The notes under the pieces were generated by a model. That model saw nothing but the letters and a program-made list of their open reading frames with translations. It did no database searches and was not told where the DNA came from. Made by a program: the position numbers and the translations under genes. 64,000 nt of DNA from a virus. The stretch covers positions 38,421 to 102,420 of the IMG/VR virus record IMGVR_UViG_3300028840_002150; one strand, given 5' to 3'. Of the stretch, positions 631 through 26,896 are shown piece after piece. The first letter of the stretch is position 1; each line of letters opens with the position of its first letter.

Positions 631-663
631 GGTAGACGACACACAACCACGGGAGCACGTATC

Positions 664-2683: not shown

Positions 2684-2721
2684 ATGTAAGACACAACCAA
2701 CCGCCAACCGGAGCACGAAAC

Positions 2722-6007: not shown

Positions 6008-6050
6008 GGTATTGTTTCAATATCTGCCGATGGGCAGCGAATAACCTATT
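6008..6050 (+). promoter_or_regulatory. early operator/promoter cassette
   Basis: GGTATT-GTTTC-AATATC-N12-GCGAATAACCTA. Confidence 0.75.
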
Positions 6051-6065
6051 GAAAGGACACGGGAA

Positions 6066-6278
6066 ATGACAAACGCAACGCAAGCAGGGAACACGAAAAT
6101 GAAAACGCAAAGCCAAATTGACCGGATGATCACCAGCCTGCAACCTGGGCAAGCGGTCGAAATCAGCCGGACAACCGCAGGACATTGCACGGTGGAACTG
6201 AGCGGCGACGGCCAGACTGTCAGGTTCGTACGGCACATCGGGGACAGCAGCACGGTTTACAAGACCTGCCGCAAGTGA
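6066..6278 (+). CDS. hypothetical protein
   Basis: First ORF after promoter. Confidence 0.5.
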   Translation: MTNATQAGNTKMKTQSQIDRMITSLQPGQAVEISRTTAGHCTVELSGDGQTVRFVRHIGDSSTVYKTCRK

Positions 6279-6505: not shown

Positions 6506-6742
6506 ATGACGAGCACAACCTACACCGTCACAATCAAAACCGAGAAACGCAACCCGCAGACATTCAGATCCGGCAAGTACCACGTCGCCCGTGATGCGTC
6601 AGGCTCGTGGCGAGCCTTCGGGGAATGCGACGGCAATAAAACCGATCGGCAAATTGCCGAGTACCTATTTCATGTGGACGAAGTTAAGGCTGTCGGTCGC
6701 GACGGTAACGGGGATATGGTAGTTGAAGTTATTGGATCGTAA
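6506..6742 (+). CDS. hypothetical protein
   Basis: GGAG/GAGG RBS. Confidence 0.55.
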   Translation: MTSTTYTVTIKTEKRNPQTFRSGKYHVARDASGSWRAFGECDGNKTDRQIAEYLFHVDEVKAVGRDGNGDMVVEVIGS

Positions 6743-6778
6743 CCGCTCATCCTGTGGTTGGGATGTGTGTTGTGTCGG

Positions 6779-6814
6779 AGCGGGGCCCGGTGGAAATCGG
6801 GCCCCGCTTTTTTT
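6779..6814 (+). terminator. intrinsic terminator
   Basis: AGCGGGGCCCG/CGGGCCCCGCT stem plus T-run. Confidence 0.85.
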
Positions 6815-6825
6815 GCGGATCGGCA

Positions 6826-6865
6826 GATATTCCGCCAATATCGGCGGCCAAGCGGCGAATACCTA
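6826..6865 (+). promoter_or_regulatory. early operator/promoter cassette
   Basis: Perfect GATATT-CCGCC-AATATC, N12, GCGAATACCTA. Confidence 0.8.
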
Positions 6866-6909
6866 ATAGATGACGCAACCAATCACCCACTAACCCAGGA
6901 GACGCGACA

Positions 6910-7206
6910 ATGCCAGCAGTTCCCACGAAATCCGTTGAAATCGACGGCATCACCATCAACATCCCGGTCGGCTCGCTCGACCCGCCTACGGCCGAATCCG
7001 AGGCCATCATGCGGGACCACCACGACCCACGAGGCTGGAAGTACCCCATGCGTCCGTTCGCCACGATGGACGCCGAAGTGGCCGCCGATCTGGCCTACTG
7101 CTACGGTTGGTATCTCGGGGGCCACGAGCATACCATCGAGCACACCCGCCACGGGCAGATTCACATTGTCAATAGCAAAGGCTATTACCACTATGTCGGG
7201 GCGTAG
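6910..7206 (+). CDS. hypothetical protein
   Basis: Single-gene cassette with AGGAG RBS. Confidence 0.65.
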   Translation: MPAVPTKSVEIDGITINIPVGSLDPPTAESEAIMRDHHDPRGWKYPMRPFATMDAEVAADLAYCYGWYLGGHEHTIEHTRHGQIHIVNSKGYYHYVGA

Positions 7207-7222
7207 GCCCGCCGGTGACATC

Positions 7223-7254
7223 GGGCCCGGTCAAGGAGGACCGGGCCTGTTTTT
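7223..7254 (+). terminator. intrinsic terminator
   Basis: GGGCCCGGTC/GACCGGGCCT stem plus T-run. Confidence 0.75.
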
Positions 7255-7273
7255 GGGTATTCCGGAAAATTCC

Positions 7274-7314
7274 GATATTCGGCCAATATCCGACACCCCC
7301 TGCCGAATAACCTA
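7274..7314 (+). promoter_or_regulatory. early operator/promoter cassette
   Basis: Perfect GATATT-CGGCC-AATATC, N12, CCGAATAACCTA. Confidence 0.8.
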
Positions 7315-7353
7315 TTGATGACACACGACAACAACCAACGCGGAGAACGGAAA

Positions 7354-7569
7354 ATGGCAACTCGGGAAGTTTACGAGGCGGTCAAGCGATTCGGGCGCAT
7401 CGGCGAATTGGACCTGCGGGCGGAAATGGAAACCTGCGGATGGGACTGGCCCGAAGTGGACAGAGCGATTGACGCCCTTTGCGACATGGCCGAAGAGGGC
7501 GAAATTGAGTTCCGCGTGGGGCTCGGAAAAGACGCCGTTGGCCGTTGGGAGCCGGAATACGCGGCCTAG
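7354..7569 (+). CDS. hypothetical protein (possible winged helix)
   Basis: GGAG RBS after leader. Confidence 0.55.
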   Translation: MATREVYEAVKRFGRIGELDLRAEMETCGWDWPEVDRAIDALCDMAEEGEIEFRVGLGKDAVGRWEPEYAA

Positions 7570-7589
7570 CAAAAAGCGACGGCGGGGCC

Positions 7590-7630
7590 GATTTCTTTCC
7601 AATATCGGCCCCGCCACGCCGAATAACCTA
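7590..7630 (+). promoter_or_regulatory. early operator/promoter cassette inside an inverted repeat
   Basis: CAATATC-N12-CCGAATAACCTA; GGCGGGGCCGAT/ATCGGCCCCGCC brackets the operator. Confidence 0.7.
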
Positions 7631-7669
7631 TTGATGACCGACACAACACCAACCACCGGAGACCGACGA

Positions 7670-7894
7670 ATGACCGTCAACACCAGCCAGTACGAATTTG
7701 CCCACGGGCACAAGCCGCGGGGGCAGGGGTTTTGGGCGTTCGAAATGACCTTCACCGACGGCCACGGCCGGTTTTCAACCGAGACCGTTTTCGCCAACGG
7801 TACACCGGCCCAAGCCCGCAAGCAGGCATGGCAGCAACTCAAGGCCGAGTGCGGAGCCGTTAAGGAACTGGTCGAAGTTACCGTTCTTCCGTAA
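7670..7894 (+). CDS. hypothetical protein
   Basis: YEFAHGHKPRGQGFWAF small phage protein; GGAG RBS. Confidence 0.65.
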   Translation: MTVNTSQYEFAHGHKPRGQGFWAFEMTFTDGHGRFSTETVFANGTPAQARKQAWQQLKAECGAVKELVEVTVLP

Positions 7895-7922
7895 CCCTTT
7901 CCCAACTGCAAAGGAATGAATC

Positions 7923-8141
7923 GTGAACGTAAGCCAAGATACCCGCGAGATGGTGGCCGAAATTCGCCGCCTGGTTGACACCGTGGACATGCCCGCCGCC
8001 GACTTCTGCGAATTCGTGCGGGGCGTCACGTTCTACCGCAATGGCGGCATGGAAACAGCCCAGGCGGTTGAACTCGCCTTGGAGGAAGTTTTCACGACTG
8101 AAGAGGCGGCCAAGTACCGCATCGCCGAAACCGCCGCCTGA
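7923..8141 (+). CDS. hypothetical protein
   Basis: AAGGA RBS; GTG start. Confidence 0.5.
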   Translation: MNVSQDTREMVAEIRRLVDTVDMPAADFCEFVRGVTFYRNGGMETAQAVELALEEVFTTEEAAKYRIAETAA

Positions 8142-8160
8142 GCCAACGGAGAACGCCAAA

Positions 8161-8460
8161 ATGCCACATCTGCTATCCGAAACCGCCTGTGAGGAAATCC
8201 GCCAACAAACCCCGCTCGTCCACCTGAACGGGTCCGGGCGGGAATCGCTGTGCGACATGCGGGAGGCCGTTTACTCCAAGCTGCAAGAGGCGGAAGACGC
8301 ATTGCGGCAAATGGCCCCGAATGGGCGGGACTACTACATCGCCGAGGACGGCCCGCAACGGCTGGAGCGGGCCACGGCATCGCACTTCCGCCGACTGGAA
8401 ACATTGGCCCGCCTGATGGAAGAAATGGAACTTGAATGCGAGGCCATCCAAGGCCGCTAA
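8161..8460 (+). CDS. hypothetical protein
   Basis: PLVHLNGSG...APNGRDYY motif; GGAG RBS. Confidence 0.65.
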   Translation: MPHLLSETACEEIRQQTPLVHLNGSGRESLCDMREAVYSKLQEAEDALRQMAPNGRDYYIAEDGPQRLERATASHFRRLETLARLMEEMELECEAIQGR

Positions 8461-8494
8461 CCGTCTACTCCGTGGTTGGGGTGGGTTGTGTCGG

Positions 8495-8534
8495 AGGCGG
8501 GGGAAGCCGGGCTTCGGTTTCTCCCGCCTTTTTT
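8495..8534 (+). terminator. intrinsic terminator
   Basis: AGGCGGGGGAAGCCG/CGGTTTCTCCCGCCT stem plus T-run. Confidence 0.85.
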
Positions 8535-8548
8535 CTTTTCGGATTTCC

Positions 8549-8587
8549 GGTATTCGGCCAATATCGGCGCGGACCGGGCGAATAACT
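8549..8587 (+). promoter_or_regulatory. early operator/promoter cassette
   Basis: GGTATT-CGGCC-AATATC-N12-GCGAATAAC. Confidence 0.8.
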
Positions 8588-8628
8588 GATTGATGAACGA
8601 CACAACACCAACCACGAAAGGGGCCGAC

Positions 8629-8880
8629 ATGCACGAGCTGAAACGAAAGTTCGAGGGCAAGGCGTTGGCGGATTACCCGGAGACCACCCGGATCCGCCTC
8701 AACCTGATTGGAGGCGGGGCCGAATACGTGGAAGTCCCTACCGCCGAAGTTTTTCAGCCGGGCGACTGGTTGGCCCGCCGCTTCGCCGGCATCAAGTTTT
8801 CCCTCTGCGAGCGGGCCATGCGTAAGCGGAACGTCCCGCTTTACAACGTCAAGACCTTCGCCGTCGAAAGCCCCGAATGA
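8629..8880 (+). CDS. hypothetical protein
   Basis: Follows leader and RBS. Confidence 0.55.
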   Translation: MHELKRKFEGKALADYPETTRIRLNLIGGGAEYVEVPTAEVFQPGDWLARRFAGIKFSLCERAMRKRNVPLYNVKTFAVESPE

Positions 8881-9095: not shown

Positions 9096-9131
9096 ATTTC
9101 GGCCAATATCGGCCTATCCCCGGCGAATACC
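9094..9131 (+). promoter_or_regulatory. early operator/promoter cassette
   Basis: GAATTT-CGGCC-AATATC-N12-GCGAATACC. Confidence 0.75.
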
Positions 9132-9177
9132 ATAATGGAGGCGACACGATATGACCACCAACCACGGAGAACGCGAA

Positions 9178-12312: not shown

Positions 12313-14412
12313 GTGGCGAAGCTGGGAACCGAAGTGGCAATGGCGGCAAGCGGGGCCACGCTGGAAGAGGCCGGGCTGGCGTGTATCGGATGGGACTGCC
12401 CGCGGGACCTGAAGTTCTTTGCCGAAGTGTTTTGGGGCGTAGTGGAGCCGGGGAGGGACCTGATATGGGGGAAACATCTATCGGCCATAGCCGAACACCT
12501 GGAAGCCGTCCGGCGCCGGCAAATCAAGCGGCTACTGATTACCGTCCCGCCGCGTACCACCAAATCCTCCCTGGTATCGGTGCTCTGGCCGGCGCAAGTC
12601 TGGACAACCGATCCGAGCCACCAGTTCCTTTGCGTATCCCACTCGGACGGGCTGGCTACGCGGGACACTCGGAAGATGCGGTCTATCGTGGAGTCGGACC
12701 TGTACCAATCCTATTGGGGCCGGGCTACCCGGCTAAGCCACGACCAAAACCAGAAGACCCGCTTCGAGAACGTGAGCCGCGGCCAGCGGGTGTCCTTCGG
12801 CATCTCGGCATCTTTCACCGGCGAGGGCGGAGACACGATCATCCTGGACGATTTGCTTGACCGGGACCGGGCCATGAGCGAGGCCCACCGCATCGCGGCT
12901 ATCGAGGCGCTGGACGAGAAGATCAGCACCCGGCTCAACGACCCGGCAACCGGGGCTATCGTGATGATCGCTCAACGCTTACACGAATCCGACCCCCCCG
13001 GACATGCCATCAAGCAAGGCGGATGGGAACACCTAAACCTGCCGATGCGGTTTGAGCCGGACCACCCGTTCCTATCCACCACATCGCTTCATTTCGTGGA
13101 CTGGCGGACCCAAGACGGGGAGTTACTGTGGCCGAAGCGGTTTCCCGAAAACGTGGTCAAGCAAATGGAGCGAACCCTTGGGCCCTACGGATCGGCCGGG
13201 CAGTTGCAACAGCGGCCGGCGCCCAGGGGTGGCGGGATGTTCAAGCGGGACTGGTTCCAGCCGGTGGCCCGCCAAAATGCCCCGCCTATCTCGGATTACG
13301 ACGAGCTGTGCCGATTCTGGGATTTGGGCGGCACGGAGGACGGGGGCGACCCGACAGCCGGGGTGCTGATCGGCCGCCGCGGGGCCAAGTATTTCATCCA
13401 CGGCTGCCAGCAGGGGCAATGGTCCGCCAATGACCGGGACACGCGGATCGTACAGACCGCCTCCCACGACAACGCCCTATTCGGGCCGAAGGTAATGACC
13501 GGCGTGGAACAGGAACCCGGCGCCGCCGGCAAGCAGGTGGCGGAAAACCTGGTCCACCGGCTAACTGGATCCGGCTACCGGGCGTTTAAGGAGCCGGCGC
13601 AAGGCGACAAGCCCACCCGCGCGGAGTCATTCCAGGCCGCTTGTGAGCGCGGTGATGTCTACGTGATCGAGGGGGACTGGCTGGAGCCGTTCCTGGCCGA
13701 GCTGGAGCTATTCCCCTACGGGCAGCATGACGACCGCGTGGATGCGGTTTCCGGGGCGTTCCGCTATGTGAGCCGAGACCACGGGCACCCACTGGACCCG
13801 CACGCCGTAGTGGCCGCGGCCGGCATGACCTACGAAGAGGCCCGCAAGTTCGATACGTTCCGGGCATCCGTTGGCGCGGTCTATCGAGATTACCGAACCC
13901 AGGAAATCGGCTTTGCTTTGGTCGGGGTCAATCCGGATGTACGGGAGTACACCTTGCTGGATTCGGCCCAATACGACCGGGCCGACGAAGCCGCGGCCAA
14001 GGACATCAGCGCCAGGGCCAAGGCACGCCGGGTACTCGGGATCGGCTATCCGGAAGCTGACGGGCATTCATTCGCCTCGTTGCTGAAGAAGGCGTGGGCA
14101 GAATCGGAAGCCCGACCGGATCCGAAATTCGCCGGACCGCTGACGGTCTACCCCAAGGAGCTATCCCCAAAGGTCCGAACCATTATTGGCGGTCACGTCG
14201 TCACCGCCTTCCGGGATGGCAAGCTGCAACTGTTCGAGGACGACGAGCTACTTCGCCAAATCATCCGACTACCGATCGCCCGCAAGCCAGCGGGGTTCTC
14301 GTTGGAGGACCCCGAGGAGCACCAGACCAACCTGGCCCGCGCCTACGCGCTCGCCTTGGCCATGTTCTGGGCGCCGTACAACATGGCCCAATACTTGCGG
14401 GAGAAGAATTAG
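12313..14412 (+). CDS. terL: terminase large subunit with C-terminal extension
   Basis: RLLITVPPRTTKS Walker A, IILDD Walker B, QRLHESD, QLQQRP, FWDLG, FPYGQHDDRVDA nuclease motifs. Confidence 0.93.
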   Translation: MAKLGTEVAMAASGATLEEAGLACIGWDCPRDLKFFAEVFWGVVEPGRDLIWGKHLSAIAEHLEAVRRRQIKRLLITVPPRTTKSSLVSVLWPAQVWTTDPSHQFLCVSHSDGLATRDTRKMRSIVESDLYQSYWGRATRLSHDQNQKTRFENVSRGQRVSFGISASFTGEGGDTIILDDLLDRDRAMSEAHRIAAIEALDEKISTRLNDPATGAIVMIAQRLHESDPPGHAIKQGGWEHLNLPMRFEPDHPFLSTTSLHFVDWRTQDGELLWPKRFPENVVKQMERTLGPYGSAGQLQQRPAPRGGGMFKRDWFQPVARQNAPPISDYDELCRFWDLGGTEDGGDPTAGVLIGRRGAKYFIHGCQQGQWSANDRDTRIVQTASHDNALFGPKVMTGVEQEPGAAGKQVAENLVHRLTGSGYRAFKEPAQGDKPTRAESFQAACERGDVYVIEGDWLEPFLAELELFPYGQHDDRVDAVSGAFRYVSRDHGHPLDPHAVVAAAGMTYEEARKFDTFRASVGAVYRDYRTQEIGFALVGVNPDVREYTLLDSAQYDRADEAAAKDISARAKARRVLGIGYPEADGHSFASLLKKAWAESEARPDPKFAGPLTVYPKELSPKVRTIIGGHVVTAFRDGKLQLFEDDELLRQIIRLPIARKPAGFSLEDPEEHQTNLARAYALALAMFWAPYNMAQYLREKN

Positions 14413-26306: not shown

Positions 26307-26371
26307 TTTTCCGCCAATATCAAAAGAGGGCTTGCGAATACGTCCTCAAGGGGTGATATTGGGGAACTATC
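26305..26371 (+). promoter_or_regulatory. early-type promoter between two operator palindromes
   Basis: GATTTT-CCGCC-AATATC-N12-GCGAATA; second site GATATT-GGGGA-ACTATC at 26355. Confidence 0.65.
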
Positions 26372-26395
26372 GGATATGAGCCGGAGGGCTGGATT

Positions 26396-26896
26396 ATGTG
26401 CGACTGCTTTCTGAGCCGGGATGCGTGGGCCGCGCTGCTAGGCACGATCCGCCGAGAAAGCCAAGCGGCGTTTGACCGGGCGGTCGGAACGGCCCGGTAT
26501 TTCCTCGCGGAAACACTGGACGTGCTCACGGACGGCCCGGAATGCTGCGCGGATTCGGTCCACGTCGGCGCGGTGGACGCGGACACTCTGCGCCGGGTGG
26601 CCGTCACCGTGGCCCACTATTTCGGTATGAAAAAAGCCGCACAAATCGAAGAGGCCGCGGAACGGCACGGCCAACCGCTGGCCTACTGTTGCTGCTGGCC
26701 GCTGACTATTGCGGACCGGGCGCTGGAGCCGGAACCGTGGCCGGATCCGCACCCGGTCCGCTACCACATGTTGCACATCTCCTGCCGTGGATACGTGCTC
26801 CCGCTCGAGGAAGCCAGGATCCGCGCCAAGGAGGATTTGGAGTTCGAGGGCTGGGCCGCGGAAGTGGCCGCACGCATGAAAGGTGCCCCCGCATGA
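26396..26896 (+). CDS. hypothetical protein
   Basis: GGAGGG RBS. Confidence 0.55.
   Translation: MCDCFLSRDAWAALLGTIRRESQAAFDRAVGTARYFLAETLDVLTDGPECCADSVHVGAVDADTLRRVAVTVAHYFGMKKAAQIEEAAERHGQPLAYCCCWPLTIADRALEPEPWPDPHPVRYHMLHISCRGYVLPLEEARIRAKEDLEFEGWAAEVAARMKGAPA

Follow-up and report, generated by a model that had tools for sequence, protein, structure and literature searches.

Architecture of the two operon ends

The window analysed here is a 64,000-nucleotide stretch from the 102-kb genome of an uncultured phage. At two sites within it, the TAA stop codon of an operon's last gene (6740; 8458) is followed by a G/U-rich tract and then by a strong hairpin with a U-run. The two tracts, hereafter T1 and T2, and the genes and promoters around them are arranged as follows.

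6506–6742, plus strand: last gene of the operon ending in T1 (78 aa; open reading frame with a GGAG site)
6751–6778, plus strand: T1, G/U-rich anti-leader tract with the blocks CCUG (anti-SD-like), GUGGUUGGG and GUUGUGUCGG
6779–6815, plus strand: intrinsic terminator 1, adjoining T1 (14–15-bp GC stem and U7)
6836–6863, plus strand: promoter copy CAATATC-N13-CGAATACC downstream of T1 (promoter scan)
7600–7627, plus strand: promoter of the three-gene operon ending in T2 (promoter scan)
8161–8460, plus strand: last gene of the operon ending in T2 (99 aa; open reading frame)
8468–8494, plus strand: T2, G/U-rich anti-leader tract with the blocks CUCC (anti-SD), GUGGUUGGG and GUUGUGUCGG
8493–8541, plus strand: intrinsic terminator 2, adjoining T2 (16–18-bp stem and U-run)
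8559–8586, plus strand: promoter copy downstream of T2 (promoter scan)

A check against the DNA confirmed every sequence and coordinate that a preliminary description had given. Across the 102-kb genome, a G/T-rich tract followed by a terminator is found at T1 and T2 only. Fold prediction assigns weak self-structure to both tracts and -44 kcal/mol (z = -5.0) to terminator 1. The GG runs of T2, but not those of T1, are sufficient for a two-tetrad G-quadruplex, and an Rfam scan of the window returned no family at gathering score. The preliminary description had also counted the stop context TAACCG as part of the shared architecture. It is present at both sites, but 5 of the phage's 36 TAA stops have this ordinary context; it need not belong to the element, and we rejected it as a component. 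A translated extension of the upstream genes across the tract was likewise rejected: the frames continue through the terminator, and the similarity is at the nucleotide level only. The open reading frames beside the tracts fall into no Pfam or PHROG family; a homologue search with the 78-aa product was also empty, and the 99-aa product has distant homologues (33–40%) in Rhizobium phages and Myxococcus phage Mx1. The promoter scan found no phage-type promoter inside the genes upstream of the tracts.

Comparison of T1 with T2 reveals a sharp division within the tracts. The blocks that mirror the leaders described below are identical (9/9 in GTGGTTGGG and 12/12 in GTTGTGTCGGAG, 21/21 in total), whereas identity outside them, terminators included, is near-random, a pattern suggesting that the pairing blocks are under constraint. 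In addition, the derived features CTCCGACAC and CCCAACCAC are common to both tracts, and T1 and T2 are therefore paralogues rather than the products of two independent events.

Complementarity to a shared leader

The promoter CAATATC-N13-CGAATAMC occurs in 23 copies in the phage genome, 23/23 on the plus strand. About 14 of the 23 stand before leaders of a common C/A-rich class; another class comprises three leaders. Among the phage's products is a sigma-70-family protein by which these promoters may be driven; because the phage carries its own sigma factor, the label "early" for the leader-bearing genes is unproven. Both tracts repeat the C/A-rich leader in inverted orientation, and the following leaders are the partners discussed here.

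637–663, plus strand: leader CGACACACAACCACGGGAG, a moderate partner
2690–2721, plus strand: leader GACACAACCAACCGCCAACCGGAG, predicted to pair well with T2
6872–6909, plus strand: leader and SD of gene 6910–7206, partner of T1 in the predicted read-through fold (net -20.0 kcal/mol)
7638–7669, plus strand: leader CCGACACAACACCAACCACCGGAG, with which the operon ending in T2 begins (net -22 kcal/mol with either tract)
8598–8628, plus strand: leader of gene 8629–8880, partner of T2 in the predicted read-through fold (net -21.5 kcal/mol)
9140–9177, plus strand: leader containing CCAACCACGGAG, ranked first in the predictions for T1 and T2 alike (net -25 and -30 kcal/mol)

The leader segment 9158–9169 possibly lies within an open reading frame, if translation starts at the ATG at 9151 instead of 9178.

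In the whole genome, T1 has its longest perfect Watson-Crick complement at leader 7638 (12 nt), followed by leader 8598 (11 nt); for T2 the longest are 12 nt at 9158, GGAG included, and 10 nt at leader 7638. The bipartite motif GACACAAC-N0-14-CAACCAC, for which 1.45 matches are expected by chance, has six matches on the plus strand, five of which are leaders, and two on the minus strand, which are exactly T1 and T2. When each tract is reverse-complemented and aligned locally with 14 leaders, its mean score is higher than that of 1000/1000 composition-preserving shuffles. Aligned with the leaders, the reverse complement of T1 covers approximately the transcription start through the SD. The corresponding blocks of tract and leader are GUUGUGUC/GACACAAC, GUGGUUGG/CCAACCAC and CUCC/GGAG, the CUCC being that of T2. 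A profile HMM of the leaders matches the tracts weakly (E = 27 and 87). The preliminary description had claimed that the reverse complements of the tracts match the leaders and that the match at 9158–9169 is 12/12 including the Shine-Dalgarno sequence, and both claims hold. The complementarity, its statistical specificity and the placement of the tracts are direct observations, and the agreement of tract with leader lies far beyond what chance and composition would produce. Furthermore, T1 and T2 resemble the leader consensus more than their nearest neighbour leader, as expected of a seed with multiple targets.

Predicted pairing and competing explanations

Raw RNAduplex energies do not discriminate the leaders: random 60-nt windows of the genome give a mean of -28.5 kcal/mol, as compared with -30 and -33 kcal/mol for the leaders. 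Because random windows bind almost as strongly, a G-rich tract is inherently promiscuous, and the raw energies were replaced by start-region-restricted and net-energy comparisons. For the whole 3' fragments, the mean net binding to 21 promoter-driven start regions is -13.4 (T1) and -16.3 (T2) kcal/mol, as compared with -5.7 and -7.6 kcal/mol for 146 other start regions (P ~1e-7). Promoter-driven leaders account for 10 of the 11 best partners of T1 and 8 of the 10 best of T2 by net energy. The predicted duplexes run from the 5' end of the leader through the Shine-Dalgarno sequence, and in cofolds an anti-SD core of each tract, UCCU in T1 and CUCC in T2, is paired with the SD. These predicted thermodynamics are, like the placement, results obtained directly.

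Our preferred interpretation, held tentatively at a probability of roughly 0.4, is that the two tracts serve, once transcribed as part of the 3' UTR, as anti-leader elements that would pair with the shared leaders and block their SD. Tracts in transcribed 3' UTRs that adjoin strong terminators have the architecture of terminator-anchored base-pairing RNAs. The carrier would be either the terminated mRNA 3' end of each operon or a processed 3' fragment of ~75–80 nt, in which the weakly structured G/U-rich tract lies directly against the terminator hairpin. The tract would base-pair with the C/A-rich 5' leader common to ~10–14 of the operons under the CAATATC-N13-CGAATAMC promoter, beginning at the leader 5' end beside the hairpin base and proceeding through the Shine-Dalgarno sequence. 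Such a duplex over the SD would block 30S binding and might also be a substrate for a double-stranded RNase. T2 may in addition act in cis, on leader 7638 of its own transcript (predicted net -22.5 kcal/mol). We infer that the RNA accumulates and pairs in vivo, with repression as the outcome. Public sequencing runs included no RNA run containing the phage sequence, and no phage-encoded Hfq, ProQ or RNase III was found. The two DNA runs that contain the sequence have identical contigs with zero variants; in all probability a single data set was deposited under two entries.

The preliminary description had proposed that the ribosome-binding sites are occluded in trans or by 5'–3' pairing. This is a reasonable reading in so far as the complementarity is specific to promoter-driven leaders among all the phage's start regions, covers the SD and includes the pair of T2 with leader 7638; raw duplex energies against random windows, as noted, do not discriminate. 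Its extension to the whole early regulon was overstated: roughly 10–14 leaders are good partners, three leaders are of the other class, and last of 23 in the duplex ranking comes the proximal leader (after 6045) of the operon that T1 itself ends. A 5'–3' match of T1 within its own message requires a transcript that starts at the promoter ending at 2680. Two tract sources also face more than 10 targets, which raises a question of stoichiometry. A bolder version is rather improbable: a long linear anti-leader RNA, set free from the two operon 3' ends or formed by them, would seize the 5' end and RBS of all shared-leader messages of the sigma-factor regulon (about ten operons or more), a regulon-wide feedback that shuts this gene class off as transcripts accumulate.

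One alternative is masking in cis. In phage T4, the RBS of e, soc, 49 and I-TevI is sequestered in read-through transcripts and free in promoter-proximal ones (PMC3014915), and by analogy each tract, when read through, would hide the next leader and its SD, leaving translation to transcripts from that gene's own promoter inside the loop. The layout resembles that of gene e, with a 5' arm upstream of the promoter, a 3' arm formed by leader and SD, and the promoter between the arms. In the MFE and centroid folds of 6737–6920 (z = -4.3) and 8455–8640 (z = -3.9), T1 is paired with leader 6872 and T2 with leader 8598, and the terminator and promoter lie within the loop so formed. The CCUG of T1 matches CAGG in its neighbour leader 6872, and in the presence of upstream RNA the predicted SD accessibility falls at both junctions (T1, 0.61 to 0.20; T2, 0.71 to 0.49). 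However, accessibility drops of the same size are seen at tract-free junctions (differences of 0.64 and 0.66, promoters ending at -2187 and 6045), and only 2 of ~20 junctions have a tract. In contrast to gene e, the phage loop is ~100 nt long and contains a strong terminator, so that read-through should be rare; the tracts, lying upstream of the terminator, are present in every terminated transcript, which a masking role would not need. The 5' arm, moreover, fits many leaders and is not specific to the adjacent translation initiation region, the neighbour leaders ranking 4/23 for T1 and 11/23 for T2 as partners. We regard cis masking as unlikely and favour anti-leader pairing at the RNA level over it, as over a DNA site or a relic.

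A DNA element, in which the leader blocks are sites for a DNA-binding protein of phage or host and T1 and T2 inverted sites ~100 bp upstream, forming an operator pair that brackets the promoter for looping or as a roadblock, is the least probable of these. Dyad symmetry is common around the phage promoters, with the -10 box in inverted form (GGTATTCGG) 5' of many -35 boxes and CCGATATTGG, the inverse of the -35 box, in three leaders. T1 ends 94 bp and T2 104 bp before the start of the following leader, and the two gaps thus differ by roughly a turn of the helix. Against a DNA site, the mirrored region includes the SD complement and coincides exactly with the 5' UTR as transcribed, reaching from near the start site to the SD, and this is a unit of RNA. 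The symmetry centre of tract and leader is off that of the promoter dyad, no candidate binding protein was found, and the neighbouring open reading frames fall into no family. It is also doubtful that the tracts are a functionless relic, namely an inverted leader duplication produced by template switching or recombination among promoter-leader modules, copied once more and now drifting. The region is rich in repeated modules that invite rearrangement, the tracts are paralogous, and there are two copies only, with no conservation seen in relatives. Nevertheless, both copies occupy the identical niche between stop codon and terminator, the division between identical blocks and near-random remainder is not that of uniform neutral decay, and the minus strand has neither promoter nor start codon. 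The last point also disposes of the suggestion that the tracts are leaders of decayed minus-strand genes: all 23 promoters are on the plus strand, the terminator hairpin fills the promoter position, and the expected position of the ATG is taken by TTA, complementary to the stop codon. A mobile cassette or MITE, whose inverted ends the tracts were alternatively supposed to be, was rejected as well. No direct repeats flank 6751–6900, 8468–8616 or 6751–7661, there is no target-site duplication, the whole unit is not repeated, and other junctions lack the tract arm.

The databases searched contained no relative with the promoter or leader of this phage. A blastn search against GenBank phages gave no comparative evidence, and the promoter patterns found no relatives in IMG/VR. 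The best terminase match is 43% in IMG/VR, 32% in JGI metagenomes and 55% in a set of 5.8 billion proteins, the last on a contig in a Pirellulaceae MAG whose promoter module differs; the best match to the sigma factor is 33%.

Relation to known systems and significance

CpxQ, SroC and DapZ are base-pairing sRNAs derived from 3' UTRs. NarS is likewise a 3'-UTR-derived base-pairing sRNA (PMC7038943). As in RNAs of the NarS and CpxQ type, the putative phage seed lies just 5' of the intrinsic terminator of the parental mRNA, and its predicted targets are the RBS regions of other mRNAs. By comparison, it is unusually long, and its predicted targets are the phage's own co-regulated messages with one common leader.

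In Staphylococcus aureus icaR mRNA, the 3'-UTR anti-SD motif UCCCCUG pairs with the SD region of the 5' UTR (PMC3868564). The phage tracts similarly place an anti-SD in the 3' UTR against an SD region, which would block translation, and T2 fits the leader of its own operon. The phage complementarity, however, is not confined to a short motif but takes in the entire 5' UTR over ~27 nt, the message is polycistronic, and the tracts match a leader common to many operons, with T1 mismatching its own proximal leader. The two ends of one mRNA also pair in Bacillus subtilis hbs, where the 5'/3'-UTR interaction is linked to translation-coupled mRNA stability (PMC5737220). A 5'-end duplex could affect RNase access in both cases, but in the phage the SD itself would be masked. 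Among phage RNAs, the c4 antisense RNA of P1 and P7 (77 nt) targets ant mRNA through complementary sequences that are probably in loops (PMC12197685). It resembles the phage tracts in arising from the targets' own transcription system and in its complementarity around the RBS; by comparison, the tracts are linear, lie in a 3' UTR and match many leaders.

If the tracts act as RNA, they would provide compact viral timing of a whole gene class. A shared leader would make many operons addressable by one antisense element, short and modular, in the tails of mRNAs, with no dedicated sRNA gene. Regulation from the 3' UTR of the icaR, CpxQ and NarS types would thereby reach the developmental control of a phage, one whose lineage possibly infects planctomycetes.

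Promoters and leaders of the phage

The virus record is complete at 102,420 bp with direct terminal repeats (IMG/VR), and the window spans its bases 38421-102420. Among the products of the phage are a large terminase, a portal-like protein, DnaB and methylases. The terminase ORF (window 12313-14412) is 699 aa long, as compared with homologues of ~460-570 aa covering ~65% of it, and has an extra ~200-aa stretch. A strict bipartite promoter motif, CAATATC-N13-CGAATA(A/C)C, is present in 23 copies in the whole genome, on the plus strand only and nearly all upstream of a gene.

Five of the 23 promoter copies, window positions (18 more genome-wide)
6836-6863, plus strand, promoter motif match
7284-7311, plus strand, promoter motif match
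7600-7627, plus strand, promoter motif match
8559-8586, plus strand, promoter motif match
9104-9131, plus strand, promoter motif match

The 23 promoters may be read by a sigma-70-family protein of the phage's own, located at about genome 29.8-30.5 kb (L212:1384-2118), whose region 2 scores above and region 4 below the Pfam cut-off. Because the phage has its own sigma factor, "middle" timing of these promoters would be at least as likely as "early". The leader following ~14 of the 23 is C/A-rich, with the consensus (T)AGA(T/C)GAC-ACAAC...CAACCAC-(C)GGAG-N6-8-ATG; three others carry CCGATATTGG, two share a duplicated third type, and the remainder are idiosyncratic. The CCGATATTGG-type leaders lie at genome 17286-17330 and 25908-25940 and at window 26343-26400. 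Since CCGATATTGG exactly inverts the -35 box CCAATATCGG, the -35 box and leader form an inverted repeat flanking the core promoter; this repeat may serve as a protein site or as one more read-through-dependent hairpin. For the third type (TTGAAAGGACACGG...), promoter, leader and gene start are duplicated between window 6018-6100 and genome 20201-20275 (L002), with 91% identity and ~24 kb apart. At many promoters, the -10 box also occurs inverted (GGTATTCGG or CCGATATTCGG) immediately 5' of the -35 box, generating dyad symmetry typical of operator sites. A hairpin without a U-run (GGCGGGGCCGAT...ATCGGCCCCGCC, window 7583-7614) follows the gene at 7354-7569; the -35 box of promoter 7600-7627, the next one, lies in its loop and 3' arm.

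Two terminator-proximal tracts complementary to the leaders

Two G/U-rich tracts (G/T-rich in DNA), T1 and T2, lie in 3'-UTRs between a stop codon and a terminator.

T1: 6751-6778, plus strand, 3' of the TAA stop of ORF 6506-6742
T2: 8468-8494, plus strand, 3' of the TAA stop of ORF 8161-8460

All sequences and coordinates quoted in the preliminary description were right on re-checking. Each tract has weak self-structure and directly abuts a strong intrinsic terminator, and T1 and T2 are the only ones upstream of terminators among the 11 tracts of at least 90% G+T in a genome-wide scan. ORF 8161-8460 is the final gene of the three-gene operon from promoter 7600-7627; its 99-aa product has 35-40% homologues, all annotated as hypothetical, in ~193-kb Rhizobium phages (RHph_N46 and others) and Myxococcus phage Mx1. 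No family could be assigned to the small ORFs neighbouring the tracts. Imperfect palindromes of ~90 nt (…CCGAGAATCA…GGCAGTGAGCGAGCCACTGCC…GGTTATCCG), repeated at gene ends 5' of the window (genome 33010-33090, 33660-33760 and 33990-34060), are unrelated to T1 and T2.

The tracts had been described as complementary to the leaders, and this is borne out by four lines of evidence that exclude chance: perfect complements, shuffles, a bipartite pattern and alignment. In the whole genome, the longest perfect complements of T1 are 12 nt at leader 7638 (leaders are named by position) and 11 nt at leader 8598, and those of T2 are 12 nt at leader 9158, GGAG included, and 10 nt at leader 7638. Aligned with 14 leaders, each reverse-complemented tract has a mean score above those of 1000 of 1000 fixed-composition shuffles. 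The pattern GACACAAC-N0-14-CAACCAC, with one mismatch permitted per block and a chance expectation of ~1.45 for both strands summed, has six plus-strand matches in the genome, five of which are leaders, and two minus-strand matches, which are precisely T1 and T2. In the multiple alignment, the reverse-complemented tracts resemble consensus leaders over the stretch between roughly the transcription start and the Shine-Dalgarno sequence (SD), past which a 7-nt spacer is followed by TTA, the stop-codon complement, at the position of the leaders' ATG.

Since both tracts carry CTCCGACAC and CCCAACCAC, which are absent from every leader, T1 and T2, as judged by sequence, are paralogues of each other and not two separate inversions of neighbouring leaders. 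They do not differ in GTGGTTGGG (9/9) or GTTGTGTCGGAG (12/12), the blocks mirroring conserved leader blocks, while elsewhere in the tract, and in the terminators past the first few bases, identity is about random. From n=2 sequences, this is weak evidence for pairing constraint or conversion from leaders and not for uniform decay. T1 CCUGUGGUUGGGAU (window 6750-6765) is also similar to the 3' strand of helix 45 in 16S rRNA (CCUGCGGUUGGAU, E. coli), probably by coincidence, because T2 is less similar and the position relative to the anti-SD does not match the order in 16S.

Predicted pairing and rival readings

Plain duplex energy by itself says little, because in a genome of 60% GC nearly any sequence is a good partner for a 40-nt G-rich RNA: the mean against random 60-nt windows is -28.5 kcal/mol (sd ~4.7), compared with -30 and -33 against leaders. 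Among start regions only, promoter-driven leaders are distinguished from the others for both T1 (-26.7 versus -21.7 kcal/mol, P ~1e-6) and T2 (-29.5 versus -23.9 kcal/mol, P ~1e-5). Net binding, in which the entire 3' fragment including the terminator is cofolded with each 5' region and the unfolding cost of both partners is charged, is -13.4 kcal/mol for 21 promoter-driven starts versus -5.7 for 146 others with T1, and -16.3 versus -7.6 with T2 (P ~1e-7), a wider separation; promoter-driven leaders make up 10 of the 11 best net partners of T1 and 8 of the 10 of T2. As predicted by cofolding, the complexes would leave the terminator hairpin unbroken, with the leader 5' end paired at its base and the duplex extending through the SD. 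Good predicted partners are the leaders of genes starting at 9151/9178, -255, 7670, 6910, 2722, 31, 7354, -6337 and 9957. Leaders of class B, a different leader class, and idiosyncratic leaders are not predicted partners, so that the predicted targets make up part of the regulon and not the "whole early regulon" originally proposed. The accompanying proposal of RBS occlusion is partly supported, within that narrower scope.

We favour, at a probability of roughly 0.4, a family of mechanisms in which the terminated 3' end acts in trans or pairs with its own 5' end. Being upstream of terminators, the tracts are on every terminated transcript, where they would base-pair with leaders of other operons or that of their own. 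T1 and T2 fit the leader consensus better than the nearest leader. T2 and its own operon's leader 7638 have a predicted net energy of -22.5 kcal/mol. The proximal leader of T1 (after 6045) ranks last of 23 leaders in the duplex ranking and is not a predicted partner of T1, so that strict icaR-like self-interaction could not be the general rule. No Hfq, ProQ or RNase III genes were found in the phage. Among the public sequencing runs searched, no RNA run contains phage sequence; two DNA runs do, with identical contigs.

Masking of the RBS in cis within transcripts that read through from upstream, known from the T4 genes e, soc, 49 and I-TevI (PMC3014915), appears unlikely. In predicted folds of 6737-6920 and 8455-8640, each tract does pair with the leader and SD that come next, placing the terminator and promoter in the loop, but strong terminators lie between the arms, the neighbouring leaders are merely the fourth (T1) and eleventh (T2) best partners, and comparable drops in SD accessibility are predicted at tract-free junctions. 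That tract and leader act as a pair of DNA operator sites is very unlikely: what is mirrored corresponds exactly to the transcribed 5' UTR, SD complement included, even though dyad symmetry is plentiful around these promoters and the tract-to-leader spacings of T1 and T2 differ by about one helical turn. It is also improbable that the tracts are relics, as identical pairing blocks within a nearly random remainder are unlike uniform decay. Two further alternatives, raised in the preliminary description, are rejected: a decayed minus-strand gene leader, for lack of a minus-strand promoter or start codon, and a mobilised cassette with inverted ends, for lack of a target-site duplication or a repeated whole unit.

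Relatives and comparison with known systems

No related DNA was found among GenBank phages, and no IMG/VR contig besides this phage has the promoter motif. The nearest terminases share 43% (IMG/VR), 32% (JGI metagenomes) and 55% (a large protein set) identity; the last is encoded on a contig of 80.9 kb that was binned with a Pirellulaceae MAG, a weak hint that the phage has a planctomycete host. This contig has a different promoter module and no T1/T2-like tract. It contains a repeated promoter-like module followed by a leader hairpin (L280:1888-1966, 2331-2409, 2767-2845 and 8191-8225), the stems of which differ between copies by compensatory substitutions (CAAAGCATC/GATGCTTTG, CAAAGGGCC/GACCCTTTG, CAACCGGTC/GACCGGTTG and CAAGTGGAC/GTCCACTTG).

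The candidate T1/T2 element most resembles icaR, with its anti-SD interaction of the 3' UTR (PMC3868564), and sRNAs derived from 3' UTRs, for example NarS (PMC7038943); the phage precedents are c4, an antisense RNA of P1/P7 (PMC12197685), and masking of the T4 gene-e type (PMC3014915). As compared with these, the tract is long and linear and spans the whole shared 5' UTR, occurs twice, abuts a terminator and has many co-regulated phage operons as predicted targets. The complementarity itself is confirmed, and candidate anti-leader pairing at the RNA level, which is partly supported, is its best reading.
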